A DNA stretch of 63,485 nucleotides, filler included, from Parachlamydiales bacterium (lineage in GTDB: Bacteria; Chlamydiota; Chlamydiia; Chlamydiales; Parachlamydiaceae), in assembly GCA_020051075.1 (NCBI GenBank). It is 4 parts of 4 records of this genome, joined end to end, with 100 filler letters (N's around TTAATTAATTAA, not from the genome) between each part and the next. Parts side by side here need not be neighbours in the genome. Positions count along the whole stretch, not along the records: positions 41,480 to 55,430 come from JAGVJP010000087.1; 3 more parts are not named here. One strand, given 5' to 3'. Under the pieces are notes generated by a model that saw only the letters and a program-made list of their open reading frames with translations, made no database searches and was not told the origin of the DNA. The translations under genes and the position numbers were made by a program. Positions 16,478 through 63,485 of this stretch are shown in pieces (position 1 is the stretch's first letter; each line of letters opens with the position of its first letter).

Positions 16478-16502
16478 GCATAAATAAGGGACAAGGAACC
16501 CT

Positions 16503-27402: not shown

Positions 27403-28773
27403 ATGGCTATTTCAACATCTCCTTATGACTGGGTCAGAACTCTTAAACCTCATTTAAAAGAACTGGATGCTATTCCCCTGACAGGAACTGCCCCTTCTTT
27501 TCCTTGGGAAGAACTTTCCGATCGACTCTCTGCGGCTTTTGAAAATGAAACTTTCTGCATTCGTCCAGGGGAAATTGCTTGGAGATCGAAGGAAGCTTTA
27601 TTCGAAGGGTTGGAAGAATCTCCTAAGCCTTTTCAATTCACCCTTCCCTCTCTTCAAGGAAATGCGTGGTGGCTGATCCCTAACTATCAGCTGCTTAAGT
27701 TGGGACGTTCGCTTCTGACTGACCCCTCTCATCGATCAGAGCTGCTTGATGAAGGGATTGCTGGAACGTTCACTCAATTCCTTTTGTACGAGATCCTGTT
27801 TCAAATTGAGCAGCTTCCTACCAGCACGATCCTGTCTCCTGTGCTTAATTCGGTCTCTTCACTGCCTAATGAAGACGCTCTTTGTTTAGAGATCATGATT
27901 TCTATCGATGGTCAAGCGATTCTCAGTCGTTTGGTGATTTCGCCGGAGCTGCGTCAATCTTGGGTGGAATACCATCAACAGCATTATGAGAGATCTGTTT
28001 TATATGAGGAGTTAGCTAAAATCGTCGATGTGACGTTGCATATTGAAGTGGGTAAAACTGAACTAACCCTTCAAGAATGGTCGACCGTAGAATTAGGCGA
28101 CTGCATTCTCCTGGACCACTGTTCGCTCAAAAACGATACGTTAGAGGGTAAAGTGGTGATGACCATTGATCGACGGGAAGCTCTTCGAGCTAAGCTTAAA
28201 GACGGCAATCTTAAAATATTAGAACTTCCCATATTTCACGAGGTGGATATCCCTATGGATGAACAAAATGAACATGATGATGAAGACGAAGACGAAGATT
28301 TATTCAGCGATTTAGAATTTCCTGAAGAGGATAACGACGATGAAGATTTCAACGATTTTGATGAAGATGAGGATCTTATCAGTGAGTTGGATGAAGATCA
28401 TCTTGAAGAAGAAGGTGTTTCAGAAGAGATTTCTGAGGCTGCTGAAGCTGGTGAAACTGAAACCACTGCTGAGTTAGCTGAAGAGAAAGCAGAGTTTGAA
28501 GAGCCAGTGATGGCTGCCCCTGTCGAAGAAGAAAAAGGGCCAATGACACCAGGAGAGATTCCTGTGACTGTTGTGATTGAAGCGGGGTGCGTGCAGATGA
28601 CAATGGATCAGCTGCTGCAGCTTGAACCAGGCAACTTATTAGAGCTAAATATCCGCCCTGAAAGCGGCGTCGACCTGACCATCAATGGAAAAATCGTTGG
28701 CAAGGGTGAACTGATTAAATTGGGCGAGACCCTTGGCGTGCGGGTTCTGAAGCTGGGACGGCGTCAGTTGTAA
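27403..28773 (+). CDS. sctQ: type III secretion cytoplasmic ring protein SctQ/CdsQ
   Basis: C-terminal SpoA domain (LLQLEPGNLLEL..VDLTINGKIVGKGELIKLGETLGVRVL) and a long acidic linker; followed by pkn5 as in Chlamydia. Confidence 0.9.
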   Translation: MAISTSPYDWVRTLKPHLKELDAIPLTGTAPSFPWEELSDRLSAAFENETFCIRPGEIAWRSKEALFEGLEESPKPFQFTLPSLQGNAWWLIPNYQLLKLGRSLLTDPSHRSELLDEGIAGTFTQFLLYEILFQIEQLPTSTILSPVLNSVSSLPNEDALCLEIMISIDGQAILSRLVISPELRQSWVEYHQQHYERSVLYEELAKIVDVTLHIEVGKTELTLQEWSTVELGDCILLDHCSLKNDTLEGKVVMTIDRREALRAKLKDGNLKILELPIFHEVDIPMDEQNEHDDEDEDEDLFSDLEFPEEDNDDEDFNDFDEDEDLISELDEDHLEEEGVSEEISEAAEAGETETTAELAEEKAEFEEPVMAAPVEEEKGPMTPGEIPVTVVIEAGCVQMTMDQLLQLEPGNLLELNIRPESGVDLTINGKIVGKGELIKLGETLGVRVLKLGRRQL

Positions 28774-28780
28774 CTCACAA

Positions 28781-29039
28781 GATAGACAGGATAAGGGACA
28801 AAAACAGGATGAGCAGGATCGCTTCGCGGCAGGATAGGCAAGATAAAAATTGACAGGATGGGAAGGATTAGAAGGATGGGAAAGCATTTTATTTAATGGA
28901 AAGTCATTCGTTATCTTGCCTAAAATCTCATCATCATCTTTTCTATCCTTCCCATCTTGTCAATTTTTTTGTTTTTTATTTTGCCTATCCTGCCGCGAAG
29001 CGATCCTGCCCCTCCTGTTTTGTCCCTTATCTTGTCTCT
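28781..29039. repeat. ~260-bp family A inverted repeat between sctQ and pkn5
   Basis: The left arm (GACAGGATAAGGGACAAAA..GCAGGATCGCTTCGCGGCAGGATAGGCAA..TTGACAGGATGGGAAGGAT) is mirrored at 28940-29039. Confidence 0.88.
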
Positions 29040-29092
29040 CTAGTTTATCATTGACAGTTCTTGATGATTTGCTCTATTTTGTTGCTCAATAA

Positions 29093-30700
29093 GTGGCGAT
29101 GGACGATTTGGCTATGTTAGAACCAGATTTTAATGCTTTAAAAAACTTGGCCATGGCGTCAAGCAAGGCGCACTTTAAAGAAAACCTCCCAAAAGAAATC
29201 GGCCCTTACAAAATCGAATCCCTCCTTAGAAAAGGGGGGATGAGCTACCTATTTTTAGGGGTCCATCCGGAAACAAAAGATCCGATTACCATCAAGGTTC
29301 TCTTCCCAGAGTTCCTTTCCAATCCTGAGATGGTGCAGCGCTTTGGAAGAGAGGCGGATATCATTGCATTAGCCGACCACCCCAATATCGTGAAACTTTA
29401 TGGCCAGGGGCAATGGGAGGGGGGACTATATATCGCGATGGAATACATTCAGGGAGTGTCATTGAGGCAGTATTTATTGCGCAATCTGATCTCTTTGAAA
29501 CATGCTCTTGAGATTGTGATGGAGATCTCAATGGCATTATGCCATCTGCATGTCCATGGAGTGATTCACCGTGACCTGAAACCTGAGAATATTTTAATTA
29601 CAGACACTGAAGGGGTTAAAGTCATCGATTTCGGCATCGCACAGCTGTTGACGGCGCCAGCAGCAGATACTGCTTCAAAGCGGCGGTTGATAGGAACACC
29701 AATCTACATGTCTCCTGAACAAAAAAATGATCCTGAATCTACGTCATATCCCTCCGACATCTATTCTTTAGGGATTATCACCTATGAATTGGTCTTAGGA
29801 AAACTTAGTCATGGGCAGATCCACCTCTCTATTATGCCTAAAGGGCTGCAAAAAATTCTAGCCAAAGCGTTGCAGAGCAAGCCAGAAGATCGTTACCAAG
29901 ATATTGTTGATTTCATGAGCGATATCTCGGATTATTTGCATTCCCCCTCGTTTCACAAAGAGAATAAAGAACTGACGCCTCTGAGCGACTTATCCGAAAG
30001 CCTACGCCACGCACAGAGCTGCTTAGTTCCTCAATATCCCCCTTATTGGCCTGGCATTCAAATCGGCTTTGCAACCTATAAGACATTAGGAACTTCTAGC
30101 CTCTACTACGATTTTTTTTCCCTGCCAAATCATGCTTTTGGCATCATTCTTGGAGAGCCCTCGGTTAAAGGATCTCCTGGAATCGTTTATTCGTCGGTGT
30201 TAAGAGGGATGGTTCGTTCTCTCTGTCAACTCACCGAGCATCCTCAGGAGATGGCTACAGTTTTAAATGCTTTGTTATTAGACGATCCAATGAAGCAGCA
30301 TTTTGCTTTCAGCTATCTCGTCCTGCTCCCTGCTGAAAACTTATTCCGATTCATCTCTTGCGGCTGTGGACAGCTATTCCTTGTTAAGTCAGCGACTTCC
30401 CGCACCGCCATCTCTTCCTCTCATACTCCTTTAGGAATAGAGCACGAGGCGCATTTTACCGAAATCGAACATCGATGGGACAAAAGCGATACGATATTGT
30501 TGTCCGCTTCTTCGAGTCATTCTCACCCCTCCAAGCAGGAGGCTCTATTTACTGACGAACAGCTGGACGTGTGTTTGAAGGAAGCAGGCGCATCGGATTC
30601 TCAGAGATTAGTCAACACCATCCTACGAAAAGCTAAATTCACTTTGAGCCGTCCCCATGACGAGCGCTCGGCTGTGATCATCGGCCTAAAACAAGAGTAG
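29093..30700 (+). CDS. pkn5: Ser/Thr protein kinase with C-terminal SpoIIE/PP2C-like region (Pkn5-like)
   Basis: HRDLKPEN, DFG, GTPIYMSPE, SDIYSLG; C-terminal YYDFF..GIILGE..DERSAVII; lies downstream of sctQ. Confidence 0.85.
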   Translation: MAMDDLAMLEPDFNALKNLAMASSKAHFKENLPKEIGPYKIESLLRKGGMSYLFLGVHPETKDPITIKVLFPEFLSNPEMVQRFGREADIIALADHPNIVKLYGQGQWEGGLYIAMEYIQGVSLRQYLLRNLISLKHALEIVMEISMALCHLHVHGVIHRDLKPENILITDTEGVKVIDFGIAQLLTAPAADTASKRRLIGTPIYMSPEQKNDPESTSYPSDIYSLGIITYELVLGKLSHGQIHLSIMPKGLQKILAKALQSKPEDRYQDIVDFMSDISDYLHSPSFHKENKELTPLSDLSESLRHAQSCLVPQYPPYWPGIQIGFATYKTLGTSSLYYDFFSLPNHAFGIILGEPSVKGSPGIVYSSVLRGMVRSLCQLTEHPQEMATVLNALLLDDPMKQHFAFSYLVLLPAENLFRFISCGCGQLFLVKSATSRTAISSSHTPLGIEHEAHFTEIEHRWDKSDTILLSASSSHSHPSKQEALFTDEQLDVCLKEAGASDSQRLVNTILRKAKFTLSRPHDERSAVIIGLKQE

Positions 30701-41379: not shown

Positions 41380-41479
41380 NNNNNNNNNNNNNNNNNNNNN
41401 NNNNNNNNNNNNNNNNNNNNNNNTTAATTAATTAANNNNNNNNNNNNNNNNNNNNNNNNNNNNNNNNNNNNNNNNNNNN
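41380..41479. other. artificial contig spacer
   Basis: 100 nt of N with TTAATTAATTAA. Confidence 0.98.
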
Positions 41480-41577
41480 CTTGTCAATTGTAAACTAGAA
41501 CTAGAGCTAGAGCTACAACTTGGGATTGAACTAGAAGGTGATTGCTCGGAAGCATCTGAAATAGGAATCTTATTCAT
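41480..41577 (-). CDS. 5' fragment of a Ser-rich ORF running off the contig
   Basis: MNKIPISDASEQSPSSSIPSCSSSSSSSLQLT, open up to the gap. Confidence 0.45.
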
Positions 41578-41827
41578 AAAAAATCCAGCTTCCTCAAAAA
41601 TCCTTAAACCGTCCGTCGGCTAATTGCCAAGTATTGCCTGAATGATGGTAGGTAATGTAATCTTTTATCTTAATCTCACTGAACAGCTCACCTTAACGCA
41701 AGTTTAAATCAATGGTGAATTAACCAGAAATTAATTTTAAAGACACCTCGATAATAGAATCTATCTTATTCAATTTAAGCAATATAACATTCACGAAGTT
41801 TTATAACCGTTCACGATGTAAAAACAC

Positions 41828-41927
41828 GAACCCGAGCCCGAAAAGCTCTTGCTAAATTCGCACCTGTCTATCAGCTCACTTTGTAAAGTTTGATCGGTCG
41901 GAAACAACGATTTTCGGACTCGGATTC
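41828..41927. repeat. 100-bp element with 17-bp imperfect terminal inverted repeats
   Basis: GAACCCGAGCCCGAAAA ... TTTTCGGACTCGGATTC. Confidence 0.55.
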
Positions 41928-42061
41928 CTACCCCGTAAATAAAAAGCAAACCCTACTTGTTGTAAAATCTTCGATTACCTATTAGAGCAACCTTGAATCG
42001 CATTAAAAAATGCTAAACTCGAGTCTGTGCCTCTGCGGTCATGTATCCAACGCCCTTCTGA

Positions 42062-45000
42062 CTATTCCATCTTGACTTCGATTCGATTATAGTGATTGCC
42101 TTCACGAATGTAAGCCATGGTATGTTCAATCGAGATCACCTCTTCAGTGGCTTCAGGATTAATAATACGAGGGGGGTTAAACTTGTTCTCGAAGACCATC
42201 ACTTTAGCCTTTGGCTTGAATATGTGAGCTGCCAATGCCAGCTCTTCAAAATCAAGATAATAATTCCTATCCAGAACAAGCTTCTCGTATATCTCAAAAT
42301 GATCTTGAACGAACTCAATGATGCGTTGCTCTCGTTCTACTTCAGCTACTTTCTTATTCTCCTTCTCTTCAAGGAACCGAGTCCAATTTGAATCCTCAAT
42401 GCCTGCTTGTTTGAGTTCATCAAAACTTGCATCAATACAATTCGCAAGACTGTCAGCAATATCTTCCGCCCCCTCTTCTAATCTATTTTGCAGACCTGTA
42501 AACTCTTTTTCTGTGTGTGCAAAGATCGGATCAAATTTTTCTTTATTGCTCAAATAGAATTCACGAGTCAATTGTGATCTCATTCTCTCCTTTATGGTCC
42601 GGTGTTCCACATCATGTTGTTGATCCCATTCCTTAAATTCTAATGTTTCTCTCAACGCCAAGCGAACAGAAGTGAATAATATCGGTTTAAGGGGATGGGA
42701 TTCGCTATGGAATATGGGTTTAAGTGCATCAATAAAGGTTTGCTTCGCAAACCTTTGGATCATGTCCCCCTCCCGATTGACATCCAATTCTGCCGGATTC
42801 CAAATATATTGAATGCAATCTCTGCTAGCCAATCGCGTTCGCGTTCCTAATAAAGAGTGCAGCGCGCAGGCCCCATCCCCACAAGTGTCAACCTCCCTCT
42901 GATAGATAGTGCCATTGTAGCTAAATGTAAGCCGATCTTCAGAACCACATCCACTGGAAGATGAAGAAGAACTATCTTCCGATGAACCCTCAACAAAACG
43001 CGCCATGCTAATCGATAAACCGTCGCTGGAATTGGTGACCCCTTCACTAGAGGACCTTGCTCCATCAGCTTGACTGCCTTCAGTCAAATGGTTTTGCAGT
43101 TCTCGACCAATCTCGGAAGTGAGGGTACCAATCTCTCTGGAATCCTTTGCTGACATTTCTTCGGCTATTTGAAGAACTTGTGTCAGAACGAGCGCAGCTT
43201 GTTCCGTACACTCAGTCAAAAACTGAGGGTCGCTAAAATTTGATTTCACAATATGAACTCTTGCTTGAACACGACTATCAATCAATGCTAGATTGTCATG
43301 ATAAGATGTCTTTATCTTTTCGATGTTCATTAAGCGAGCCTCTCGATCTTCTATCTGAACAGCCTCCAATATTTCTTTTAAAAATTTCCCATAGTTTTCT
43401 TCGATCATTCTTCCAATGACGGTTTGATGTGAAACGATGTTTGCGATGAGTGTCTGGCTTCTATCCCCCATGCCGAGGATCTCTTTTTGAAGTTCGGATT
43501 GATCTAAAAGTGATCGTTTCGCCATCTTTAAGGCCATGCATTGAACTCTTTCACGAGCAGCATCTGACATCCTATCGGCTTCAATAATCGCTTGGACGAT
43601 GTTGCCAACTTGCTGTACCACCATCCCTTGCATCATCATCTGCTCAGATAGCCCCCCTTTTCCAGCAAGCAGACCTAATTCATTCTTCCTCTCAATAAGT
43701 CTCCACGTGTTGGTTAACAATTCATTCGGATGGATTTGATTCAAATAGTTTGAGATTACCGTGCTTTCTTTCTGTTTTAATTCTTGATATTTCGCCCACC
43801 CTTTCTCTAATGTCCTTATGCATACATAAACTTCTGCTTTCTTTGAATCTTTTCCAATCTGCCTCAATTCTGGAATCACTGGGTCTTGACCTCTTTCATA
43901 AGCTTCCAAAGATAGATCATAAATTCTCGTCACATTTTGATGCAGTTTTTCTTTTTCTTGCTCATTAAAACGGCTCATGGATGAACTTGCGGCAAGAAGA
44001 AGTCCTATCACGCACCTCAATCGCTTAATTTGTTCGCTCATTAATTTGCGATAGAGCTCTGCCATTTTCTGACCACTTGAAATGATAGCCTCGTTAAGCA
44101 AGTCCTTTTTTATTGCTTCTTTCGCTTTTGAACTTTGACGTAATTCATTTTTAAAATACTCTGTAATGAATCCAATAGCGAAATCACCAGAACTTTCCAT
44201 GACAAGGTTGTAGCTACCAGTAAAAGAGGATGAGCTGTCTCTTTGAACACGATTTCCATTGCTTTGCCGACTCCTTCTCCCAATTTTACCATCTGGAATA
44301 ATGCCTGGAGAAGGTCTGCCAACCCTTTGACTATCACCGAATACTGGCGGAGGCCCCCCCACACCCCCAGGAGGATGTGCCCTGTCAGTTCCAATAGGCA
44401 TCGTTGGCGGTGTTGGACTGCTAGTACTAAATCCCCGACCAGAAGAACTGGCTCCAGGAGGGGGCCCCGAAGAAGGATCGCTACCAGGAATTATTCCAGG
44501 TGGAGTCCATCCGTCTTTTCTCATCTTTGAATTTAATGACAATTGATCACTGCTTCCTGGTGATGGAGCCCCAATCCCCTCTGGAGGATGAGCCGTACCT
44601 GAAAAAAATATGGCATTCGGTGGAAGTGTAACTGTCTCTCCAGAATCGTTTTTGAAAACCCATCGCGAAGCATCGCCAAATCCTGGTGGTGGAGCCCCCG
44701 TCACTCCTGGAGGAGGGGCCATGCCTGTTTCCATTGCCATCGGCGGCGGTGCTGGACTGTTTGCATTAAACCCTCGACGAGAAGAACTATGAGCTTCACC
44801 AGGAGGCGGTCGTCTTGATGGTCTAGATACATCTTGTTTAAATTTTTTTGAAACAGCTTCTGTCCCCTTGTCTATCATTTTCCCTGCAGTTTTGTGTAAA
44901 ACCTCATTCGTTAGGTCGACGACGGTTGTTAAATTATGGAACAGCTCTTTAGAAAAATCGCTCGTCATTTTCTCTATGATTTCTCTTTTTTTACAAAGAT

Positions 45001-48000
45001 AATAGTCACGTAGAAACCGTGCATAAGTTAAGCACGCTGGAAGGATCAAATTAGAATGGTCGAAGGTGAAACGATCGAGATTATAGTGCTTGACATCATA
45101 CACTGCATCTTTGGATAAGGGCCTCTCAGAGGGGGTGAGATACTTCACAATAATGAAAAGATCAATTTCACCATTAGTATCAATGATTTTCTCATTTCTA
45201 AGCCAAGCACAACCTGCCTTAATTTCTTCCGAAGTCAATCCAATGGATTTTTTATTCAATATATCTTCAAGATCTTTTAAGTGGTTAAAGCGTTGAGATA
45301 AGAACTCATTAAATGGCTTTTCGAATTGAAGTATGATTTTTTTGTTAAATTCACTAATGTCTAGCATGTTAAATTTGGCACTTAAAATTAGAGTGTTGAT
45401 CTTGCTCGAAATAATAGTAAATTCCTCGCAAGAATTTAAAAAAGCATCGACAGCAAGTGCTTTATTCAAGATTCTTTGCCAGTGGTCTTTGTGAAACATG
45501 TCCTGAATGTCCCGTTTCATATTTTGTACTAAGCTTGGTTCGACCCCTTTAAGGAATGATCCGCTTGTCCTCGTCAGAGTCCTTTGCACCCCTTGTTTCA
45601 AAGAACCTTGAACGATCCCTTTGAATCCACTTTTGACATGATCAAGACCAACAGTTTTCGTTGTGTGAAGGACTTTTTTACCAACTGTAAGTGCCACTTG
45701 AATCATCTCGTCTCCGTGTTCCATCAAATAGCCTCTGATATTATCAAGCTTCCGTACAGTTTTTTTTACGGCTTTAACTCCACTGAGTCCACAAGAACTC
45801 AAGTTCATTGCAACACTTAATGATTTTTGCAACATAAACGTTGAGCCGTCAAACTCTCGATTGGTCACAGCTGAAAAAATCCGAGTTGCATCGCCAATGC
45901 CTTCTGAAATTAAGGCTGAACCTGCAGCAGCTCCCGCTCCTCCTGAAAATGTCGTGATGACCACCCCCCCAGCAATTTGCAACAAACTTAATGTTGTTAA
46001 TAAAGCTAAACCTTTTCTTGGTAGAGGGTTTCTTTCATTAATGTCATAAAGATAATGCAAGCCATTCAATTGCTGACGGACTACAAAAGAAGGATTAGCG
46101 CAAATTTTCTCAAGTTCAGCCTTGATGGGATGGTGAAAGATAGAGAAATCCTCTTCTTTACGATCAGCTGCTTTGATGATCGTTTGTGCTGTATCGGCAT
46201 CTATTTCATTAATCGAAAGGGTCGCATTGTTATGTTCTGCCAAAGTCATTCGAGCAATATTAATGGCTTGCTTATGGTCCAGATCAACAAAACTTAAAAC
46301 CATTGAACGAGGAGATTTCTTCTTCTGGTTACCATTATCCCATTCCAACTGCATTGAGCTTTCCGAGGCTCGATCTTCTAAGCTTTGTGTGCCAGAGGAA
46401 GTGACTATCTTAATCCATTGACTGGCAGTTGCTTGTTTTAACCGATGTAAGACTAAGTTCGACGTCAATAAAGGGTCTTGACTGTCTAAGAAATCCAAGA
46501 GATTTTGCAATTGATCATAAGAACATTCCAAAATGGATATTTCTCCTTCCGGCCTGTCCAAAACAGGGTCAGAAAGGCTGACGGATATAGGTTCATTGTG
46601 TTTCAGAATTCCTTCCTGATCTCGTTGTGGTGGGAACCAAACTGATACATGCATTTGAGGACACTTTATTTTTAAAAGCTCCAATAGTGCCGTTGTTATC
46701 TTTATTGGACCAATTCCAAAAACTGTCCCTCTTAAAATTGATTTTCTGTCGACCTTGGGGGCTACTTTGGAGATTGTTTCCGATGAAGTTGAAGTTGTCT
46801 TCGCTGGTTTCGAAGAAGAAGTAAACTTCTCTAGCAGTTCTCTCATCCCTTTAACCGTTAAATCTCGTATTGTCAAGGTTGCAGGAACTACTTCTGTCCC
46901 ATTATCGGAAGAACGCCAATCGTTAAATTTATCAATTTTTTCAACCACAACATGTTTGCCAGATTTCATGGCTTTAGATACCTTGCTACTCACATGACTT
47001 ACCAATTCTGTTGATTTTGCAGCGATAGCGGCCCCTCGATCTGCCAATGTAATTACAGGTGCCTGATGAGAACTAGCAGTTTTCGATGATGCGTCAGCTG
47101 GATTGGAGGTGGATGATCTATCATCCGAAGAGGCATCCATTAAACGCTCATTCTGTCTAATTTTTTTTCGACATGCAGGTAAAAGAGCTCTCAGATGATA
47201 TTTTTGACCCTGCTCTGAATAGAGTTTATCGCCGTCAAAAGATAGTGTGATAGGGATCTGAGAAGGGATTTTTTCAATCGTGTGTTCTAGTTGAGAAGTC
47301 TTGGTAATGTCTACATGGGTTTTTAAATGATGAAATGTGAGACGGAATTTGGCTTGAATGCCGGAAGGGGGAGGAATTCCCAATCGTTTCATCACCCGTT
47401 TTGTCGTATATTTGTCGGAGTATGTTTGACTAAAAGATGGCACACCAGAATCTATTGCAATGAGCTTTTGAGATTCCTCAATCTGTTGAACGGCTCGTTT
47501 TGCAGAATCTAGCAACAAATAATACACTTGTAATTGTTGCTGAAATTGAGTGTTTAAAAAATCTTTGCCAAAAGATAAGGAAGAATTGTTATATTGACTG
47601 AGTAAAAGATAAGTTGCCTGGTGCTGTCGGAGAGGCCCATTCATGAGCGCTTGCTGCATCTTTTCGAAATTTTCCTTAAGGTTTTTCTTATACCCATCCT
47701 TTTTTAACTGAATGACGGCATATGCTCGATGATAATAGGCGATAAAAGAGAAAATCTCATCCATTGCAATGGCTGCGTCATAGGCCTGGATGGCCTTTTC
47801 ATAAAAAGTATTTTTTGAAAAGTAGTGGCGGTAACGACTCGCTCGATTGAGCAGCTGATTTCCTAAACGAATGTAGTAGATGGGATTGTCAATAATCGTT
47901 TCTTGGCGATAAGCCTCCAACATCTGCTCTTTAAATATCAGAAACTTGCTTGTTGCTTCTGTTTTATCCTCTTGACTGAGAATATCCCTTAGCCACCTCC

Positions 48001-51000
48001 CCCATCGTTCTTCTAAAGCACTTCTTTTTATCTCACACAACTCTTCAAAGTAGATTCGATCAACAGAAATTTGTTTTTTTATTCGATCAACACCGAATTT
48101 TGAATGTTGAGCTTGATCAATTTGCTTGATTTCTTCTAACAATGAAAGATAGCCTCGAAATAACTTCTGCTGCTGTTTGATATTTGGCAAATGAACAGTT
48201 TTGATTTTTTCTAATTTTTCACATTCCTGTGCATCGGGAAGATTCTTGGCCAGCTTCGGATCCTTTTCCAATCCTTCAATGTTGCATGATGGAAATTGAT
48301 CCTTGATAGCTTGTAGATCCAAAATTAATTGAACAGTCCCCGGCTCGCCACGCCTTGAAGTACGGCCAAAAGCTTGATTTCTCACGCGCTTATCGGGTGG
48401 GAGAAATGTCAAACAAACATGCAATCCCCCCTTTTTGATAACATCCTGAGAGACCCGGATGTCGGTCCCTCTCCCCGCTAAGTTCGTTGCTACAACTATC
48501 GTTCCCGGACTTTGCTCTTTCTGTAGAAAATATTTTGAATCATTTTTATCATCATAATAGAGGAATAATGACGGTTTGGCATATCTATCTTGGAAACGCC
48601 CATGTAGTTCTTCAGCAGTATTAATTGTTTCACATATGATCAACACAACCCGTCCCAAATTCGCATCTCTAATCGCATTTAGAACGATCGCCTCCATCCA
48701 TAACTCTTGATTTTGCAGCAATTGTGGGGATAGTGTTAGCCTATTCCTCGGCAAAAAGGTAGGGATTTCAACACAGTCGTAACGATAGGTCTCTTTTAAG
48801 AGCTCTTGCAAGCCAGGCGATCCAAGAGTTCCAGTGATCCCAAGTCGGTGATGATATCGCTTAATATAAGAATAAATCGATGAATAATTGGTCACAAGTG
48901 TCATGGGTTCGATCATCAATGAATGATTAAGTTGAAGAAACTGCTGCAATCCTTCGCCCCATGATGTTCCTAACTGAATTGCTCCAGTATTGGCGAAATC
49001 AACAGGGGCGATACACTCGACATCTTCAGGATTTTTCTCGATACGATAATCACGCCCCTCTTCATATTGATATTTTGCCAGCCATGCACTTTGAATCCAA
49101 TGCTTCGCTTGACTCTTCACAAATGGTTTTAAGTGTTTAGGAATTTGCATTCCACCTTCTGCATCCTCTACAATCATATTAATATAAGAAAGCAGTTCCG
49201 TTTCGATCACCTTTTTTACGACTGCATCGTCTGTGATATCTACCTGATTGAAGGGATTTTTCTTTTCACTTTCAGGAGAACTAGAAGTGTCTTCCAGTTC
49301 AATGTCATCGGATGACTCTGTTTTTTCACTTTCAATATCACTAGAGTCTTCTCCCAACTCAATCCCTTCGGATGAATCTGATTCTTCACTTTCAAGGTCT
49401 CTGTTGTCTTTCAACTCGATTAAGTGAAGAAATCTCATCCAAAGGCAAACTAACAATGGGGTGAGCTCTTGCATGCATGGCATAGGACTGGCTAGCATCG
49501 TAAGGCTGTCATTACTCTCAATGAGAACATTATCCACTTCATCCATGACAACCAAATCAAATCCTCGTTCACCTCTCGTTTTTAACCCACCATATTCATG
49601 ACGGAGAACATCCCATTGAAAATGGCTTGGATCGCCATAGACCACATCGACATCTTTTGCGTAACATTTCTTCATTCCCGATTCATACTGATGATCTTCG
49701 TTGCTAGCGACCTTTAATGAAAATAATTCATAAAATGGTTTATAATCTTTTACATCCCTTTTAGCTAGTTCCGACGAACTTGTGATCACATCAACTTTTT
49801 TGCCTTGCAATGCCTTGAGCGCGGCAAACATCGCGATGATCAGGGATTTACCTTCCCCTGTCGAAATCTGTGCAAGAATCCCCCGAAGGGATTTAGCTTC
49901 CCCTGTTGAAATCTGTGCAAGAATCTTCGGATCTGTTCGTTCAGCTAGCAACAATAGTGCGACTAACTGCACCTCTCTAGGGGGGTAGCCAAACAGCAAA
50001 ATACATGCTCGCTTAAAAACAGCTAAGCATTCCGGCAAAATTGTTGCCTCAAAACTAACATGGGAATGTGAGGATGAGGAAGAGCTGATCAAACTAGTTT
50101 GATCCATCTGTTTAATTTGACCCGCCCATTTCTTAATATGTTCCTTGGACCATTCGTTCACAGGTAAGGGCGATACAACATCTCCAGAAATGCGGGGCTT
50201 TTTCGCTGGTGACCAATAAAGTTGGTCTACTAAAGCCAAGGTCTCCCTTATCTCATCGATATAACTCTGTTCCATTAAACGAGAGTCTTTCTGATTAATT
50301 GAAGAGGACCTAATCTCCTCAATTAATTTGGGTAAGCTTTTTATCTTATCATACGAGGTTAAATGACGATTCACCACATAGGCATGCAAAATCTCTGGAA
50401 TAATGATTTTTCCCTGAGCAAATTGTTTTTCCACAAGCGCGTAAAAACTAACCTCTCCAATCTGCTCCTGATAATTGCATGTCAAAGTCAAAATCTCTGA
50501 CATGTTTCTAATGTCGATCGCATTTAGCTTTCCTTCCTCAACATCTTCATTGATTTTCCTTAACCAATCCATGAGTGCTGTGAAACTCCATCCCTGTTTG
50601 CAAAGAGAAAAGGCACTAAGAACCGATTGCCTTAACCATTCCGATGTGCGATCATTCACCTCCTGGGCTTTGGAGCCGTCCGAAAGGGCAATTTTGACTA
50701 GATGCTGACATAAAAGGTATTCCTTTAGAGCAGAAGTCAAATTGCTTACCGACACTCCCTTGCCATCGTTGAAGTCTTCAACGACATCTAGACCAATCGA
50801 AAAATCATGAATCAATGTCAACAATGTAGACAACTCATCGAGTGTTGCATCTGTCGATAGTTTGCCAAAGAGTGCCTTTGCCCTGATGGGAAACCAATCT
50901 AACTTCTGATACACTTTGAGTAGCGATTGCTTACTATCAAACGACACTCGTTTAACTGAAGCGAACGGCGAGAGCAATCGGTCAAAAAAGAATGCTCTAA

Positions 51001-54000
51001 TCTCAGTCAAATTTCCGCGAAGTAATTCAAAAGGCTCTTCAGAAAAGCTACAGAAGATTGCAAGTAGCTCATTCATTTCGGCTAAGTTGTTTTCTTCTTC
51101 ATTTTGCTTGAACAACAAAATTCTAAGCACTTGCCGATAATTGACTTTAGGATGATTCTTTTTTACGATCAACAGCAAATCAAGGAAAAGCTTTTGATCT
51201 TCTGAGGGGGGATCGCCCTTTGAAATCATCTCTTTAAGACGTTCTGTAAGGTCATCCTCGGATGGTATTGGGACAAGTTTGGCTCTTTGCTCGAATCGAT
51301 CAAAAAAACCGGCTGATTTTTCACTCTCGATGACAAAAGCAAGCAGATCTAATAAAAGAGGAGCTTCCTCTTTAGAATCGATTGGGAAATCAGGAGGTTT
51401 CCAAGATATGGCCCTCACCGCTGAACTAAATCGATTTTTAAGAATTCCTAGAAAAGTTGAAAGCTGAGAAGAAGAGGCAGGGGTTGGCACCTCTATTTGC
51501 TGAAGACCTTCTAATTTTGTCACTAAACGAGTCAATGTGTTCAGCAACATCTCAGACCAGATGGGCAACCCAATCAAATTTTGGAAAATAAAATAAATGA
51601 TTTTGTTTCTTGTTTCAGAATCCTCAATAAAGAAATAGAAATCGATCATCTTGATAACTAAATCTTGATTCAATTGAAGATTTCGGTGTTTTGCTAAAAA
51701 AAAGAGCATATCGAATTGACCAATTGTCATTCTTCGGCTATTCAAAATATTAGTGCTCAGCTCTTCGAATAACACCACCTCCTCAGTAGGATCGACTTTC
51801 CGATCTAATAAAATCTGGCGACAAAAATTAACGTAAAAGTAGTGATATTTCCTGTACCAGAACGAGAAGAATTCTTTTTTGTATGCTATGAATATTTGCT
51901 GACAAATTGTCCTAGGCAATTTAGATTTCACTTCATCAAAAATTATCAAGATTTTTTGTTTGTGTTCACTACGAGGGAAACGTGTTAAAAGAAGTTCTGC
52001 ATTCCCGAGGCTTAATTCTCCTCCATCGCCCACATGTTTGAAAATACGATCAATGTCGAGGCACTCCGCATCAGTACATTCAACGTCGACTAAGGTTCGT
52101 AATGCTTGATGGAAGGGGCTTAAGCTTAATTCTCTGGATTCCACACTCACATCTTCGTTCGTAAGATTTTCCTGTAATCGGTTAATGGTTTTCTGAGGAG
52201 GAGACAAGGCGAAGTAAACCGAAATCCACTCAATCGTTTGATTGAGAATTTCAAATGACTTTCCACGACAATATTGATTTGACGTCTCAAGGAAGATGGT
52301 TTTTAACATCATTAACACTTGGTCATTCAAATGGTGTTTCTTCATGATGCATTCAAGGATGTCGAAAGAATTTTTTAAATGTTTATCTGGCAAAGAAAGG
52401 AGCGATTCTACAATGGGATCGGAGAGGGATTGGTGCTCCTCAATCGTTTTTAATAAATCAAGAAGATGATCAAGTTCCCGATTTTGAAAAACTTTTAACA
52501 GATGTTCGACGACGGCAAAAAAATCGGAAGACAAGCGCGGTGTTTTCAACACAAATTTGGTTGTGGCGTGATTACCCTCTTCTAAAATTCTTGAATGAGT
52601 GACTTCACTCTCTGACTCGGCTATGGGAGATGGTTCATGAGACGAACTTGTCAGAATAGCTGTGATTGTCCCAAAAGAATTGATGATATCTTCATGAGCA
52701 ATCTGGCCGGATAGTCCTTTAGATTTTTCAATTATCTCTTTCTCAGCTTCTTTAAAAGCAATCATTTTCAAGTACGCATCGGAGAAATCATTGACTGCGC
52801 GAGACATTTGAAGTTTTAACAGTTGACAAAGTTGATATTCTTGTTCAAAACTATCTGTGGCATTAATACTCTCATAGATAGCTTGGAGTTGATTCAACTC
52901 CAATGTGATGAAGTGATTCAGGCGAGCGATCAAGCCAGTTAATTTTTTCCGTATCTTCTTTGATGACGTTTTTCCGACTAACCAAAGCAATTGATCAATA
53001 TGATGCGGTGCTTGAGGTTGATCGAAAGTATCTGCACTAAATACATTCATCAAGATTTCTGCAACACGATATATCTCTCTATTCTTAGAAAGGAGGGCCC
53101 ACAATTTTTCGAGCGTCTTTGATTGAATCACAGGTTTCTGTTTCACGATAGCGTCTAGAGCACCTAAATAGAGAAGGATCTCTCGATCATCAACGTCTGC
53201 TAAAAACCCCTCTTCTACCAAGGGAAATGCAACTGGATCGACCGGAATATTTTTTTTAAGACATCGAGCAACTAGAAGACTGCGATGCCGTTGAGTATCA
53301 ACAGAAAGTCCTCCCCCCTCCAAACGAGATAGGGATTGCAACATGAAAGGAGGAACCATATCCTCATGATAGAAGACGGCCTCGCAAAACTCGAAAATCG
53401 ATCTAAGCAACCCTTGTTCAGAATCATCTGAATAAGAAAATCGATCTGTCCATTCTATGAGAGTCTGAAAGACACTTGCTGTCATGCGATATCGTGATTC
53501 GACAAAGCGAATCAGTGATCCTATCGATTCTAATTTTTTTTCGTTTGTTCCGTCTCTAAACGAAAGAACGACCCCTTGAATTTCAAATATCTCTTTAGAA
53601 GTACTTTTCAGTTCACTCTGATATTTCTCTAAGATCGCAAAAACATTTTGAGAAGTCTCAATATCAGATTCAATATACAAACACGTTGCAATTTCTTCTA
53701 GATCATCTGAAGACAGGTTATTGTATCCTAAAGCTACCATCCGAGCTAGAACAAGAATTGCGTCACGTTGTTGTTTTTCGTCTCGCAAACAAGGAATAAC
53801 CCCATCGACGATTTCACTTATACACGTATTTCCATTCGAGATAGGAACGGCTAAATGTGGAATTTGCAAGGATAACAATCGCATCGCTAAAACACGAATT
53901 TTCTCATTTTGATCGCTTAAAAGGCCAATTAATTGTTCAAGTAAGGGAACAGGAAAGCTCAAAGAACTCTTTTCTGAGAAATGAATCAATACTGAACAAG

Positions 54001-55423
54001 CCTTAAAACGTATATTCGAGGGATTATAACCTGTTGCTGCAATCTTCATTAATGACTCTAAGCTCTTACTAGCAAGCGCTCCATCGTTGCTTCTTAAAGA
54101 GGCAATGTTCCTCTTATTCAACATCATCACACACGAAAGCACAACCTCTTCCCGATCAGAAGAGAGGCCCTGGATAATTCGCTCCATCACTCTTTTAGAG
54201 AAAACTTGTCCTTTTTCTGCCGTTGCTTCCAATAGTGAAGTAGCAGCAAGTTGGGCTTGTGAGCTATCATCCAAGATGATATTGACAAGGAGATCTAAAC
54301 ACTTTTCATTGATCTGCCATCCTCTTTCCACTAATTCAAGAAACACCTCGCATGCCATCTCCACTGTCTTTTCTTTACCTAGTAACACAGCAAGTTGATC
54401 CATCTGAGGATCTGTCAAAGGCTCCGCTAACAGCTTCATGTAATGACATAATAATGAAAAATCATCCATTAAGTCCTTTTTATCCACCGACTGGCATAAG
54501 CGAATTAATAGATCGAAAAAATCCTGAGACCATCTCATTGTCGTTTGAGATAGCAAGACAGCTGCCATCGTTCGGGCGCAACATTGTTGTAAGGAGAGAT
54601 TTGTAGAGGATAAAGCATTTATAATAAGGGTGTCTATAAGCTGATCTGGAAATAAAAAACCCTTTTCCGCAGCTCTTCCTAAGAGACTCATCAGAGACAT
54701 CTTTTTCTTGATTGAAAGATCCGTTGCTAACAAATTGACGATTTTTTCAAATAAGCGACTAAATTCTTTTTGAAAATGAGGGGCCTTTATCGTATTCACC
54801 CAAACAAATAAAACAGTACATGAAGTGCTTAGCAACTTTTTATTCCCTAGAGAGTCAATCAATCCTAGTAAAAGCGGCTCACAAATGACATTATCAGGAT
54901 AATCGGGTAGCATCACTCCTAGTAATCGCAGAGAAGCTTCTTTCAAATCAATATCTAGTTCTGGGGTATTAACCGTTTTAATGGCATCTTCAACAACCCT
55001 AATCATGGCGTCCGCTGGCAGCTCTCTTTTGATCTTATTCTGATTCTCAACAATATATCGAATCGTAGCCGTTGCATTGATCAAAGCACCTAAAGGAAAA
55101 TGTTTATAATTTATGATTAAGTCCACAATTTCACAAATGGTCGTAGGAGGAATCTCGTCACCGTCACGAGCTTTAATAAAAAAAGCCTCGATCAATAGAA
55201 CACAAAAATCGGGATGACACAATAATCCCCCAGAATCGTTCGTTGTTTTGTCGAACAAAAACAAAATATAACGAACAAGTAGACGCAAATCATCCATTTT
55301 TTTTATATCAGAGGTACTCATTTGAGAGGTGCTATCGATGGCGTTTAATAAGCTCTTCCAAATTTCGACTCCGAGAAATTGGGAACGATCAATCCGTTCA
55401 AGATGAGATCTCAATGCAGACAT
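42062..55423 (-). CDS. giant (>4450 aa, probably 5'-truncated) HEAT/ARM-repeat, SecA-like helicase, OTU-like protease protein
   Basis: SecA-type motifs: STGEGKS, VDVITSSSELAKRD, DEVD, GITGT, ATNLAGRGTDI, QAFGRTSRRGEPG. C-terminal GDGACALHS...NHY. The frame is open up to the gap. Confidence 0.88.
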   Translation of the reverse strand: MSALRSHLERIDRSQFLGVEIWKSLLNAIDSTSQMSTSDIKKMDDLRLLVRYILFLFDKTTNDSGGLLCHPDFCVLLIEAFFIKARDGDEIPPTTICEIVDLIINYKHFPLGALINATATIRYIVENQNKIKRELPADAMIRVVEDAIKTVNTPELDIDLKEASLRLLGVMLPDYPDNVICEPLLLGLIDSLGNKKLLSTSCTVLFVWVNTIKAPHFQKEFSRLFEKIVNLLATDLSIKKKMSLMSLLGRAAEKGFLFPDQLIDTLIINALSSTNLSLQQCCARTMAAVLLSQTTMRWSQDFFDLLIRLCQSVDKKDLMDDFSLLCHYMKLLAEPLTDPQMDQLAVLLGKEKTVEMACEVFLELVERGWQINEKCLDLLVNIILDDSSQAQLAATSLLEATAEKGQVFSKRVMERIIQGLSSDREEVVLSCVMMLNKRNIASLRSNDGALASKSLESLMKIAATGYNPSNIRFKACSVLIHFSEKSSLSFPVPLLEQLIGLLSDQNEKIRVLAMRLLSLQIPHLAVPISNGNTCISEIVDGVIPCLRDEKQQRDAILVLARMVALGYNNLSSDDLEEIATCLYIESDIETSQNVFAILEKYQSELKSTSKEIFEIQGVVLSFRDGTNEKKLESIGSLIRFVESRYRMTASVFQTLIEWTDRFSYSDDSEQGLLRSIFEFCEAVFYHEDMVPPFMLQSLSRLEGGGLSVDTQRHRSLLVARCLKKNIPVDPVAFPLVEEGFLADVDDREILLYLGALDAIVKQKPVIQSKTLEKLWALLSKNREIYRVAEILMNVFSADTFDQPQAPHHIDQLLWLVGKTSSKKIRKKLTGLIARLNHFITLELNQLQAIYESINATDSFEQEYQLCQLLKLQMSRAVNDFSDAYLKMIAFKEAEKEIIEKSKGLSGQIAHEDIINSFGTITAILTSSSHEPSPIAESESEVTHSRILEEGNHATTKFVLKTPRLSSDFFAVVEHLLKVFQNRELDHLLDLLKTIEEHQSLSDPIVESLLSLPDKHLKNSFDILECIMKKHHLNDQVLMMLKTIFLETSNQYCRGKSFEILNQTIEWISVYFALSPPQKTINRLQENLTNEDVSVESRELSLSPFHQALRTLVDVECTDAECLDIDRIFKHVGDGGELSLGNAELLLTRFPRSEHKQKILIIFDEVKSKLPRTICQQIFIAYKKEFFSFWYRKYHYFYVNFCRQILLDRKVDPTEEVVLFEELSTNILNSRRMTIGQFDMLFFLAKHRNLQLNQDLVIKMIDFYFFIEDSETRNKIIYFIFQNLIGLPIWSEMLLNTLTRLVTKLEGLQQIEVPTPASSSQLSTFLGILKNRFSSAVRAISWKPPDFPIDSKEEAPLLLDLLAFVIESEKSAGFFDRFEQRAKLVPIPSEDDLTERLKEMISKGDPPSEDQKLFLDLLLIVKKNHPKVNYRQVLRILLFKQNEEENNLAEMNELLAIFCSFSEEPFELLRGNLTEIRAFFFDRLLSPFASVKRVSFDSKQSLLKVYQKLDWFPIRAKALFGKLSTDATLDELSTLLTLIHDFSIGLDVVEDFNDGKGVSVSNLTSALKEYLLCQHLVKIALSDGSKAQEVNDRTSEWLRQSVLSAFSLCKQGWSFTALMDWLRKINEDVEEGKLNAIDIRNMSEILTLTCNYQEQIGEVSFYALVEKQFAQGKIIIPEILHAYVVNRHLTSYDKIKSLPKLIEEIRSSSINQKDSRLMEQSYIDEIRETLALVDQLYWSPAKKPRISGDVVSPLPVNEWSKEHIKKWAGQIKQMDQTSLISSSSSSHSHVSFEATILPECLAVFKRACILLFGYPPREVQLVALLLLAERTDPKILAQISTGEAKSLRGILAQISTGEGKSLIIAMFAALKALQGKKVDVITSSSELAKRDVKDYKPFYELFSLKVASNEDHQYESGMKKCYAKDVDVVYGDPSHFQWDVLRHEYGGLKTRGERGFDLVVMDEVDNVLIESNDSLTMLASPMPCMQELTPLLVCLWMRFLHLIELKDNRDLESEESDSSEGIELGEDSSDIESEKTESSDDIELEDTSSSPESEKKNPFNQVDITDDAVVKKVIETELLSYINMIVEDAEGGMQIPKHLKPFVKSQAKHWIQSAWLAKYQYEEGRDYRIEKNPEDVECIAPVDFANTGAIQLGTSWGEGLQQFLQLNHSLMIEPMTLVTNYSSIYSYIKRYHHRLGITGTLGSPGLQELLKETYRYDCVEIPTFLPRNRLTLSPQLLQNQELWMEAIVLNAIRDANLGRVVLIICETINTAEELHGRFQDRYAKPSLFLYYDDKNDSKYFLQKEQSPGTIVVATNLAGRGTDIRVSQDVIKKGGLHVCLTFLPPDKRVRNQAFGRTSRRGEPGTVQLILDLQAIKDQFPSCNIEGLEKDPKLAKNLPDAQECEKLEKIKTVHLPNIKQQQKLFRGYLSLLEEIKQIDQAQHSKFGVDRIKKQISVDRIYFEELCEIKRSALEERWGRWLRDILSQEDKTEATSKFLIFKEQMLEAYRQETIIDNPIYYIRLGNQLLNRASRYRHYFSKNTFYEKAIQAYDAAIAMDEIFSFIAYYHRAYAVIQLKKDGYKKNLKENFEKMQQALMNGPLRQHQATYLLLSQYNNSSLSFGKDFLNTQFQQQLQVYYLLLDSAKRAVQQIEESQKLIAIDSGVPSFSQTYSDKYTTKRVMKRLGIPPPSGIQAKFRLTFHHLKTHVDITKTSQLEHTIEKIPSQIPITLSFDGDKLYSEQGQKYHLRALLPACRKKIRQNERLMDASSDDRSSTSNPADASSKTASSHQAPVITLADRGAAIAAKSTELVSHVSSKVSKAMKSGKHVVVEKIDKFNDWRSSDNGTEVVPATLTIRDLTVKGMRELLEKFTSSSKPAKTTSTSSETISKVAPKVDRKSILRGTVFGIGPIKITTALLELLKIKCPQMHVSVWFPPQRDQEGILKHNEPISVSLSDPVLDRPEGEISILECSYDQLQNLLDFLDSQDPLLTSNLVLHRLKQATASQWIKIVTSSGTQSLEDRASESSMQLEWDNGNQKKKSPRSMVLSFVDLDHKQAINIARMTLAEHNNATLSINEIDADTAQTIIKAADRKEEDFSIFHHPIKAELEKICANPSFVVRQQLNGLHYLYDINERNPLPRKGLALLTTLSLLQIAGGVVITTFSGGAGAAAGSALISEGIGDATRIFSAVTNREFDGSTFMLQKSLSVAMNLSSCGLSGVKAVKKTVRKLDNIRGYLMEHGDEMIQVALTVGKKVLHTTKTVGLDHVKSGFKGIVQGSLKQGVQRTLTRTSGSFLKGVEPSLVQNMKRDIQDMFHKDHWQRILNKALAVDAFLNSCEEFTIISSKINTLILSAKFNMLDISEFNKKIILQFEKPFNEFLSQRFNHLKDLEDILNKKSIGLTSEEIKAGCAWLRNEKIIDTNGEIDLFIIVKYLTPSERPLSKDAVYDVKHYNLDRFTFDHSNLILPACLTYARFLRDYYLCKKREIIEKMTSDFSKELFHNLTTVVDLTNEVLHKTAGKMIDKGTEAVSKKFKQDVSRPSRRPPPGEAHSSSRRGFNANSPAPPPMAMETGMAPPPGVTGAPPPGFGDASRWVFKNDSGETVTLPPNAIFFSGTAHPPEGIGAPSPGSSDQLSLNSKMRKDGWTPPGIIPGSDPSSGPPPGASSSGRGFSTSSPTPPTMPIGTDRAHPPGGVGGPPPVFGDSQRVGRPSPGIIPDGKIGRRSRQSNGNRVQRDSSSSFTGSYNLVMESSGDFAIGFITEYFKNELRQSSKAKEAIKKDLLNEAIISSGQKMAELYRKLMSEQIKRLRCVIGLLLAASSSMSRFNEQEKEKLHQNVTRIYDLSLEAYERGQDPVIPELRQIGKDSKKAEVYVCIRTLEKGWAKYQELKQKESTVISNYLNQIHPNELLTNTWRLIERKNELGLLAGKGGLSEQMMMQGMVVQQVGNIVQAIIEADRMSDAARERVQCMALKMAKRSLLDQSELQKEILGMGDRSQTLIANIVSHQTVIGRMIEENYGKFLKEILEAVQIEDREARLMNIEKIKTSYHDNLALIDSRVQARVHIVKSNFSDPQFLTECTEQAALVLTQVLQIAEEMSAKDSREIGTLTSEIGRELQNHLTEGSQADGARSSSEGVTNSSDGLSISMARFVEGSSEDSSSSSSSGCGSEDRLTFSYNGTIYQREVDTCGDGACALHSLLGTRTRLASRDCIQYIWNPAELDVNREGDMIQRFAKQTFIDALKPIFHSESHPLKPILFTSVRLALRETLEFKEWDQQHDVEHRTIKERMRSQLTREFYLSNKEKFDPIFAHTEKEFTGLQNRLEEGAEDIADSLANCIDASFDELKQAGIEDSNWTRFLEEKENKKVAEVEREQRIIEFVQDHFEIYEKLVLDRNYYLDFEELALAAHIFKPKAKVMVFENKFNPPRIINPEATEEVISIEHTMAYIREGNHYNRIEVKME

Positions 55424-55430
55424 TGCATAA

Positions 55431-55530
55431 NNNNNNNNNNNNNNNNNNNNNNNNNNNNNNNNNNNNNNNNNNNNTTAATTAATTAANNNNNNNNNNNNNN
55501 NNNNNNNNNNNNNNNNNNNNNNNNNNNNNN
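55431..55530. other. artificial contig spacer
   Basis: 100 nt of N with TTAATTAATTAA. Confidence 0.98.
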
Positions 55531-63145: not shown

Positions 63146-63238
63146 AAAAGAACTCCTTTTTTGTTTGTGAAGAAGAAAATATAACAATCAAAAAAACGAT
63201 TTGCAAGGAAAACAATTCACCACAAGAGCAAGGGACCA

Positions 63239-63483
63239 AAAGAGGTAATTGCAGAAGTAGAGCCCGAACCAGATCTGCGAGCCATCGCCGAAAACAGACT
63301 TTTATCAACTCACAGGTTCTTGCCAAAAATTGACCATCGAAAAGCGGAAGAAGACTTCCGCACTCCAAACGCTTCGCGTATTCAATACGATTTGTTGGAT
63401 ACGCGAAGCGTTTGGAGTGCGAAAGCCCCCTTTCGCTTTTCCGCCAAAGGATGTTGATCAGAACCTGTGCGCTTATAAAAGTT
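63239..63483. repeat. family C composite palindromic element, most complete copy
   Basis: Inner 22-bp perfect arms at 63360-63420; imperfect outer arms at 63298-63320 and 63460-63482. Confidence 0.85.
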
Positions 63484-63485
63484 GG

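Follow-up and report, generated by a model that had tools for sequence, protein, structure and literature searches.

Introduction

SecA is a motor that requires SecYEG. Besides the ordinary protein, SecA-like domains have been noted in several kinds of very large proteins, which are cited here from the excerpted text of each source. In the eukaryotic association module of phage WO, SecA domains that are nearer to invertebrate than to bacterial sequences lie in very large genes (PMC5062602). Omnitrophota giants carry a divergent SecA-like domain beside an ordinary SecA, and self-export has been proposed for them (bioRxiv 2023.11.21.568195) as well as for actinobacterial giants (PMC8195603). Zhang et al. 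(2012; PMC3482391) listed SecA-like domains among the effector modules of Amoebophilus and reported C-terminal OTU domains in large proteins of Amoebophilus, Waddlia and Wolbachia. One otubain-like OTU has been described in Simkania (PMC10643670), and the excerpts of PMC7397232, PMC8163844 and PMC9111745 deal with ordinary SecA only. The present study concerns a giant gene (42062..55423, minus strand, as are all its features named below) within a 63,485-nucleotide stretch of DNA, called the window, from the genome of a Parachlamydiales bacterium (assembly GCA_020051075.1). A preliminary description had claimed that it encodes a giant SecA-like helicase ending in an OTU-like deubiquitinase, a candidate host-directed effector or toxin.

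With SecA and SecA2 the protein shares the intact ATPase motifs and, as seen in the model of a relative, superposable NBD1, NBD2, clamp, scaffold and finger helices. In contrast to them, its motor is embedded in a chain of about 4900 aa, apparently lacks the wing, has a short finger tip, is accompanied by a hydrophobic module of its own and is not orthologous. The likeness to the SecA proteins of phage WO is by description only, and the giant gene has no phage context. Whereas the Omnitrophota giants are polytopic multi-enzyme proteins that are said to be without scaffold and wing (bioRxiv 2023.11.21.568195, in part), the present family has one hydrophobic module, scaffold and finger helices, HEAT repeats and one terminal cargo. 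With polymorphic toxin systems it has in common a constant N-terminal body, a variable C-terminal toxin and, in some relatives, an immunity gene, but this copy has no immunity gene. Chlamydial Inc proteins and type III effectors are marked by an N-terminal type III signal and a bilobed hydrophobic domain; the giant has a hydrophobic hairpin, and a Ser-rich N-terminus is known from its complete paralogues only. The excerpted text of PMC3482391 describes neither a chassis of SecA motor and hairpin as a trafficking module nor animal or ciliate members. A literature search did not find this chassis as a system; its scope did not extend to subscription journals or to supplements (above all the architecture files of PMC3482391), which may hold it. 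The domains have been noted piecemeal in print, and the chassis as a trafficking module appears to be undescribed.

The reading that is tentatively preferred here, with a little less than even confidence, is that the giant is a host-exposed effector composed of motor, anchor and cargo, the cargo being a deubiquitinase. That the protein is directed at the host in one way or another is probable.

Results and Discussion

The SecA-Type Motor

All motifs listed in the preliminary description were found in place. The ATPase (aa 1750-2370; 48314..50176) consists of NBD1 and NBD2 with an inserted preprotein-binding (clamp) domain, and Walker A (TGEGKS, 49861-49844), DEVD (49543-49532), motif V and motif VI (48376-48347) are intact. 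A 14-residue tandem duplication lies directly before Walker A (49841..49924), of which the first copy is degenerate and the second intact. A Pfam search with the whole protein yielded SecA_DEAD (E 6e-31), P-loop_SecA (E 8e-10) and DEAD (E 1e-8), and no OTU, HEAT or TPR model was matched at E <= 1. With the core region as query, a search yielded 476 proteins of 2449-7793 aa; counts out of 120 relatives refer to the best 120 of these matches. The ATPase motifs were retained in 102-119 of them, and the SecA-specific clamp stem motif in 112.

In a profile comparison with chlamydial SecA, the alignment took in NBD1, the clamp stem and NBD2 with a probability of 100; past motif VI the signal faded. 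In a tree of 66 cores the giant grouped with its own paralogues (support 1.0), adjoining a protein from a Coxiellaceae genome and distant from chlamydial SecA. After removal of two very long branches, the remaining 64 rows were used for an approximately unbiased (AU) test with 2000 replicates, and a forced grouping with housekeeping SecA was 369 log-likelihood units worse (p-AU 1e-12). The genome has a separate ordinary SecA on another contig (C86), and an orthologue of the single housekeeping SecA of about 900-1000 aa could thus be ruled out, as had been anticipated.

For a compact relative (L025), the conserved part (1186 aa, 42 rows) was modelled with AlphaFold (predicted local distance difference test score, pLDDT, 78.6; predicted template modelling score, pTM, 0.73). 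Superposition on substrate-engaged SecA (6itc) covered 614 residues at 3.1 Å (Z 38.0), included clamp, scaffold and finger helices and reached the end of the two-helix finger; the aligned part extended up to residue 775 of Bacillus subtilis SecA and residue 826 of Escherichia coli SecA. By alignment, the long helix and the next two helices of the model correspond to aa ~2382-2506 of the giant (47906..48280), a long scaffold helix followed by an equivalent of the two-helix finger with a shortened tip. In the model the scaffold helix (628-670) passes straight into the finger (674-720) and leaves no space for a wing domain, and the SecA_SW model matched none of 12 segments.

The nature of the substrate was judged from the same data. 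The core might be a nucleic-acid helicase, or a sensor, by which the effector is gated; the SF2 fold, the DEAD match (E 1e-8) and the public labels that name relatives helicases would be in line with this. Yet in a second-look fold search with the L025 model SecA chains took ranks 1-28 (Z 25-39; up to 614 residues), RNA and DNA helicases aligned over at most 363 residues with Z of at most 24.9, the motor domains alone aligned over 397 residues, and the clamp stem is retained in the great majority of relatives (112 of 120). Such a helicase or sensor is therefore given a very small probability, and, going by the model, the motor core probably handles polypeptide. Of the earlier label "SecA-like helicase" the first half stands and the second is wrong, since the polypeptide-handling parts of SecA have been retained.

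Another use of the motor would be a private one in the producing bacterium, where it might export or insert the giant chain with SecYEG or with its own helices, the OTU being freed later. The L025 model is most like SecY-bound SecA: all four SecY-bound chains aligned over at least 600 residues at 3.5 Å or less, and free SecA chains over about 505-527 residues or at 6-8 Å. Self-export has been proposed for other giant SecA-DEAD proteins (bioRxiv 2023.11.21.568195; PMC8195603; excerpts), and a figure legend in PMC5062602 places SecA under secretion. However, the wing domain appears to be absent and the finger tip shortened, crossing of the inner membrane alone would not take the OTU to host ubiquitin, and genes for the same chassis lie on contigs of chromosome scale in fish and Hydra. 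To our knowledge, the cytosol of these animals has no SecYEG, which also counts against this possibility, and it is regarded as quite unlikely.

The Chassis and Its Hydrophobic Hairpin

The 476 giant proteins, which come from intracellular bacteria, ciliates and animals, have in common a chassis of motor, TPR helices and hydrophobic hairpin. The TPR-like helices follow the finger (aa ~2514-2580; 47684..47884) and are delineated by TPR matches in relatives, the L025 model and alignment. In 5 of 11 relatives the corresponding segment was matched by TPR models at E<=0.05, the best match being 2e-7. The TPR-like segment that had been noted in the giant (KAIQAYDAAI, 47797-47768) is in place, but the giant itself has no TPR match. 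A variable insert (aa ~2700-3090; 46154..47326) separates motor and hairpin, the spacing being 237-874 aa in relatives.

The conserved Gly/Ala-rich hydrophobic hairpin with a third apolar helix (aa 3136-3214; 45782..46018; hydrophobic stretch 46012-45890) is predicted to be a membrane-inserting module. It had been pointed out in the preliminary description, and it contains the most hydrophobic 19-residue window of the whole protein (Kyte-Doolittle, KD, 1.94); two of its helices are strongly apolar and the third is weaker (KD 1.25, 0.48, 0.60). The hairpin was present in 116 of the 120 relatives, from 98 of which its profile had been built. A profile of 13 animal rows alone found the hairpin of the giant at E 4e-16 and matched 31 of 42 bacterial loci (of the 11 without a match, several end at contig edges); in this genome it matched the four giants only and no SecA. 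Comparison of the hairpin with Pfam, PDB and NCBIfam gave no firm match.

Among the best 120 relatives are proteins of symbionts and metagenomes as well as entries under the labels rotifer, fish, Tetrahymena, Hydra and tardigrade. Several eukaryote-labelled members sit on contigs of 27-64 Mb, and some animal labels on short contigs could be due to symbiont contamination. Of the 42 bacterial loci, those that are named below class level belong to Coxiellaceae, Legionellales, Francisellaceae, Rickettsiales, Amoebophilaceae/Cardinium, Chlamydiae and one Neisseriaceae genome, mostly intracellular lineages; the remaining ones have no finer label than Gamma- or Alphaproteobacteria or Cytophagales. 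Members are also carried by four plasmids of symbionts and Legionella, on one of which they lie in tandem. No member was found on viral contigs, and a phage collection gave only matches at the level of ordinary SecA, with no WO record among the 20 listed of 21 phage matches. In the core tree, a Francisellaceae-labelled protein that ends in lysozyme (L017) and a Tetrahymena protein (P0069) are very close (branches 0.14 and 0.11), with Hydra next, which is either a recent transfer or a mislabelled contig. Three members (L044, L046, L034) lie behind runs of large same-strand open reading frames (ORFs), which include a second, degenerate SecA-like gene (L044, L046) or a DnaJ-domain protein (L034).

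N-terminal to the motor, a HEAT/ARM-like helical solenoid occupies aa 1-1700 (50324..55423). The giant has no direct Pfam match there, but relatives give Pfam HEAT matches, and a profile from the HEAT region of a relative matched residues 68-1062 five times (best E 4e-13) and none of 50 shuffled sequences, so that the proposed HEAT/ARM-like character gained profile support.

C-Terminal Cargo in the Relatives

The regions behind the hairpin differ strongly between relatives. Among those of 28 bacterial proteins, seven had matches, some of them under the cut-off, to enzymes of toxin type (lysozyme, WHH nuclease, colicin D, colicin-E3-like, two hydrolases and an ADP-ribosyltransferase), and four had matches to LysM. 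In 15 proteins picked for extra domains, C-terminal nucleases, a deaminase, an amidase, an ADP-ribosyltransferase or a peptidase were present in eight, and 107 C-terminal ends fell into 53 clusters. The member with the WHH nuclease (L029) is followed by a SUKH immunity gene (E 2e-19). Nine small ORFs downstream of relatives comprised this SUKH gene and two with weak DUF matches (L032, L020). For the giant gene of the window, no immunity-type gene was found within 582 bp downstream, which fits a target that is absent from bacteria.

The C-Terminal OTU Domain

The last 290 aa (aa 4164-4453; 42065..42934) were modelled with high confidence (AlphaFold, pLDDT 91, pTM 0.81). In a wide fold search, rows 1-29 were OTU-family chains, two of which are taken to be OTU members; the best one was OTUD3 (Z 10.1, root-mean-square deviation (rmsd) 3.3, 132 residues aligned). 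The best Foldseek match was yeast Otu2 (E 0.005, probability 1.0), with no match at E<=0.001; a viral structure library likewise indicated OTU, and the best Atlas match was 0.92 to OTU clusters. The predicted domain thus almost certainly has the OTU fold of a cysteine protease, and the surmise of an OTU-like C-terminus was borne out. Asp4183 and Cys4186 (42866-42868) lie in the GDGAC box (42880-42866) and His4444 (42092-42094) and Asn4446 in NHYN (42097-42086), and the triad Cys4186-His4444-Asn4446 is intact in sequence. An alignment of homologues retained the Cys box, a Y-[YH]-L-x3-E-L segment and the His box, with Cys in 10 of 11 covering rows and His in 11 of 12 rows. One homologue (P0123) is without catalytic Cys and His, and another (P0124) has an altered Cys box.

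A helical lobe of about 198 aa separates the Cys loop from the variable loop, similar in length to the lobes of 178-210 aa in Legionella LOT enzymes (PMC7690952, excerpt). Pfam PF02338 did not match the OTU of the giant and matched one homologue at E 0.009, below the cut-off, because the long lobe insertion splits the domain. Among bacterial OTU effectors, the fold search retrieved Wolbachia wMelOTU (Z 9.3), Ceg23/LotB (Z 8.1) and Simkania SnOTU (Z 6.7). The lobe was compared with LOT structures (Ceg23, Z 8.1, rmsd 4.8, 175 aligned; Lpg2529, Z 5.6, rmsd 6.9). Repeated weak matches of the lobe (window 42272-42772) to CARD, DED and death domains (Z 4.0-4.7) were taken as common helical packing, and a death-fold kinship was rejected. 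Unlike the known effectors, the OTU of the giant belongs to a separate module family and stands behind a motor, and a PDB sequence search found no match to any solved chain.

An exhaustive search yielded 12 proteins at E<=0.001 that carry the module, including the giant; the others either stand alone, as proteins or fragments, or are fused to ankyrin repeats, a lipase, an AAA ATPase, a CHAT domain and DUF6119. A word-based homologue search with the OTU domain found none in 973 candidates. The module was detected in 25 of 301 genomes of the phylum (29 matched, four of them outside the OTU part), a count that includes some genomes that supplied alignment sequences, and a 1365-aa ORF of a same-order genome matched the OTU alignment, which includes a Ca. 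Neptunochlamydia protein, at E 4e-239. The long-lobe OTU is thus a mobile C-terminal unit of many chlamydial proteins that is invisible to Pfam, and by itself it represents a candidate deubiquitinase family of environmental chlamydiae. A separate 392-aa ORF in this genome has a conventional Pfam OTU match (E 4e-7; contig C6, 15330-15758).

The domain is likely to have deubiquitinase activity. Alternatively, it might be a processing peptidase that acts on the giant chain itself or on a non-ubiquitin target. Such roles have been proposed for some bacterial OTUs (PMC3482391, in part), and the domain has no Pfam OTU match. However, it is terminal, it is missing from two paralogues, it also occurs by itself and in unrelated effectors, and its lobe is as long as the ubiquitin-binding lobes of the Legionella LOT enzymes, so that a processing role is assigned a small probability.

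A Proposed Mode of Action

The preferred reading of a host-exposed effector leads to the following scheme. The protein would be exported into the eukaryotic host cell, where ATP and ubiquitin occur, probably by type III secretion; the complete paralogues start with a Ser-rich leader (24 and 26 Ser within the first 40 aa). The HEAT solenoid would pick the target surface, the hydrophobic helices would insert into the membrane, and the motor would clamp a polypeptide and drive it at the membrane without SecYEG. In most relatives the protein's own C-terminal toxin would be fed into a rival bacterium or an organelle. In this copy the cargo slot would hold a deubiquitinase that removes ubiquitin from the vacuole or from host targets, and no immunity gene would be needed for such a cargo.

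Antibacterial cargo that comes with immunity speaks for threading of the C-terminus across a membrane in this family, and the eukaryotic members speak for independence of SecYEG. That the cargo is threaded in the family through the protein's own membrane module is given nearly an even chance. A wider and more doubtful version is that the family is a one-chain delivery machine, in which a SecA-type motor and a membrane conduit of its own would use host ATP to inject exchangeable C-terminal toxins into rival bacteria or organelles. It would have been spread by plasmids among intracellular bacteria and adopted by ciliates, rotifers, cnidarians and fish, plausibly as a cell-autonomous antibacterial weapon, and the chlamydial copy would have been re-aimed at host ubiquitin. 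If this is true, polymorphic toxins would have a new trafficking mode, in which a SecA-type motor is fixed to its own hydrophobic module and combined with swappable toxins. A role would also be found for the many "SecA-like" genes of fish, rotifers, Hydra and ciliates that have so far been unexplained, and it would become clear how symbionts inside cells fight one another and their hosts.

Several points weigh against the proposed scheme. The first is a conflict of topology: an OTU that is pushed across a membrane by a cytosolic motor would end up away from ubiquitin. Eight relatives have OTU, Ulp1 or RickCE domains, and in all eight the domain is found N-terminal to the hairpin, on the motor side; among the 120, only the giant and its paralogue have this OTU at the C-terminal end, so that this copy is an exception and its OTU may not be threaded. 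The hairpin has no convincing kinship to a known pore family (NheB matched 4 of 25 members, best E 8e-4). By sequence, the finger matches that of SecA in register but not significantly (P 0.13), and its tip is about 16 residues shorter. The modelled relative is only about 30% identical to the giant, and AlphaFold conformations can mimic solved structures, so that a predicted conformation is no proof of mechanism. The Atlas recognition of the OTU domain was 2282, slightly below the bar of 2300. No Pfam match was obtained for 17 of the 28 post-hairpin regions and for 6 of the 9 small downstream ORFs, and the region of this copy that would hold the secretion signal lies outside the assembled sequence.

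The arrangement of the proteases on the motor side is expected if the giant is an anchored scaffold without self-threading. Like a giant Inc protein, it would have its hairpin in the inclusion or host membrane and both ends in the cytosol, and motor and OTU would jointly act as a membrane-bound extractor or unfoldase plus deubiquitinase on host proteins. The combination of p97 with an OTU protease serves as a model for this. Two strong and one weaker apolar helix permit such a same-side topology, two paralogues have no C-terminal enzyme, and SnOTU of Simkania has a transmembrane helix (excerpt of PMC10643670). On the other hand, relatives end in lysozyme, amidase or colicin-type RNase or DNase, one of them with a SUKH gene, and such cargo must cross into a bacterium. 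An anchored scaffold is thus viewed as unlikely, though still a serious candidate beside the delivery of cargo.

Paralogues and Exchange of the C-Terminus

The genome encodes four giants: the one in the window on contig C109, one on contig C54 (C54a), one that is split over contigs C54 and C132, and one on C132 (C132a). The last three form a tandem array (C54 1-21334 and C132 11842-36142; L055-L057). C54a also ends in an OTU-like domain. The split giant and C132a end directly after an all-helical domain, which in the giant of the window occupies aa 3726-4122 (43058..44248), and they have no OTU, which indicates that the C-terminus is exchangeable. Together with the varied C-termini across the family, this agrees with the earlier suggestion of a swappable C-terminus. 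The helical domain is preceded by a Pro/Gly-rich linker (44264..44836; 36% P+G), which is the least conserved part between the paralogues and is rearranged between strains.

Each of the two OTU-less giants is followed by two small ORFs (198, 347, 407 and 601 aa from stop to stop), which consist of the pre-cargo helical domain and Ser/Pro-rich tails and contain no recognisable toxin. The helical domain is thus common to the four giants and to four small stand-alone proteins. It matched no Atlas, Pfam or PDB family, a database search found only three small proteins of the same genome, and weak profile matches were obtained in P0014, P0015, L024 and L043. No relatives of the four small proteins were found outside this genome; they could be chaperone-like partners or cassette remnants.

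A close orthologue of the giant was found neither in 40 related genomes, where the best match (E 3e-42) was a different SecA-like class, nor in 399 genomes of the phylum, which gave four weak matches of E ~1e-4 with two candidates scored per genome. A second class of SecA-like proteins of about 1100-2000 aa, with Walker A near residue 310-350 of the sequence available, occurs in this and several related genomes (L002-L006, L008); here it is encoded on contig C9 (7494-10820) behind a 2311-aa ORF. This class is distinct from both housekeeping SecA and the giants.

The Gene and Its Assembly

The window consists of four contigs (C104, C105, C109, C117) that are joined end to end by artificial linkers of 100 N's with stops in all six frames (16677-16776, 41380-41479, 55431-55530). 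The real genomic context of the giant gene is therefore C109 only (41480-55430), which the gene fills, and its 5′ end is cut by the contig edge at the linker 55431..55530. Downstream, a spacer to the contig end (41480..42061) contains no ORF of more than 52 aa and a terminator-like hairpin (41827-41840).

The uninterrupted frame of 4453 aa that had been described is real, but the ATG at 55423 is not the start, because the frame is still open at the contig end 7 bases further upstream. Two complete paralogues align with residue 1 of the ORF at their residues 414 and 438, carry Leu instead of Met at this position and have 413-437 residues before it. The family profile begins at position 6-11 in the complete paralogues versus position 92 in the giant. 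By this comparison about 415-440 N-terminal residues are missing from the ORF, and the full length is probably about 4870-4890 aa. C109 and the paralogue contig C54 share the same terminal 99 bases, a pattern that fits an assembly break at a 5′ repeat common to both, and two contigs from another run reach about 1010-1020 bases beyond the 5′ edge of C109. No RNA data set was listed as containing the sequence.

A misassembly of the frame was ruled out. A collinear paralogue is 58% identical over the entire length of the ORF, contigs from three of four independent runs, mostly 90-99% alike or below, cover all 30 bins of the gene, and records from independent runs span the junction preceding the OTU. 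A binning artefact was likewise considered unlikely. C109 has intergenic repeats in common with other contigs, and the paralogue contig C132 contains ORFs that, judged by their sequences, are presumed to be hemB, a tsaB-like gene, a dGTPase gene and sucCD-like genes, of which the genome has no second copies. The tetranucleotide correlation (r 0.94) was the 33rd lowest among 98 contigs.

Further Observations in the Window

Arguments from the neighbourhood of an aro operon, an enolase gene and SctQ were discarded, because these genes lie on other contigs. The contigs of the window carry SctQ and an AroDE fusion, as in a chlamydia-like genome, but they are not neighbours of the giant gene. The type III secretion gene SctQ is followed by a Ser/Thr kinase gene (window 27403-30700). 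An 846-aa ORF (window 5906-8446, plus strand) gave weak matches to HerA/TraD-type ATPases and to serine-rich sequences. Short repeats at window positions 63209-63485 and 16486-16676 and at contig ends have many copies in the genome, many of them at contig ends.

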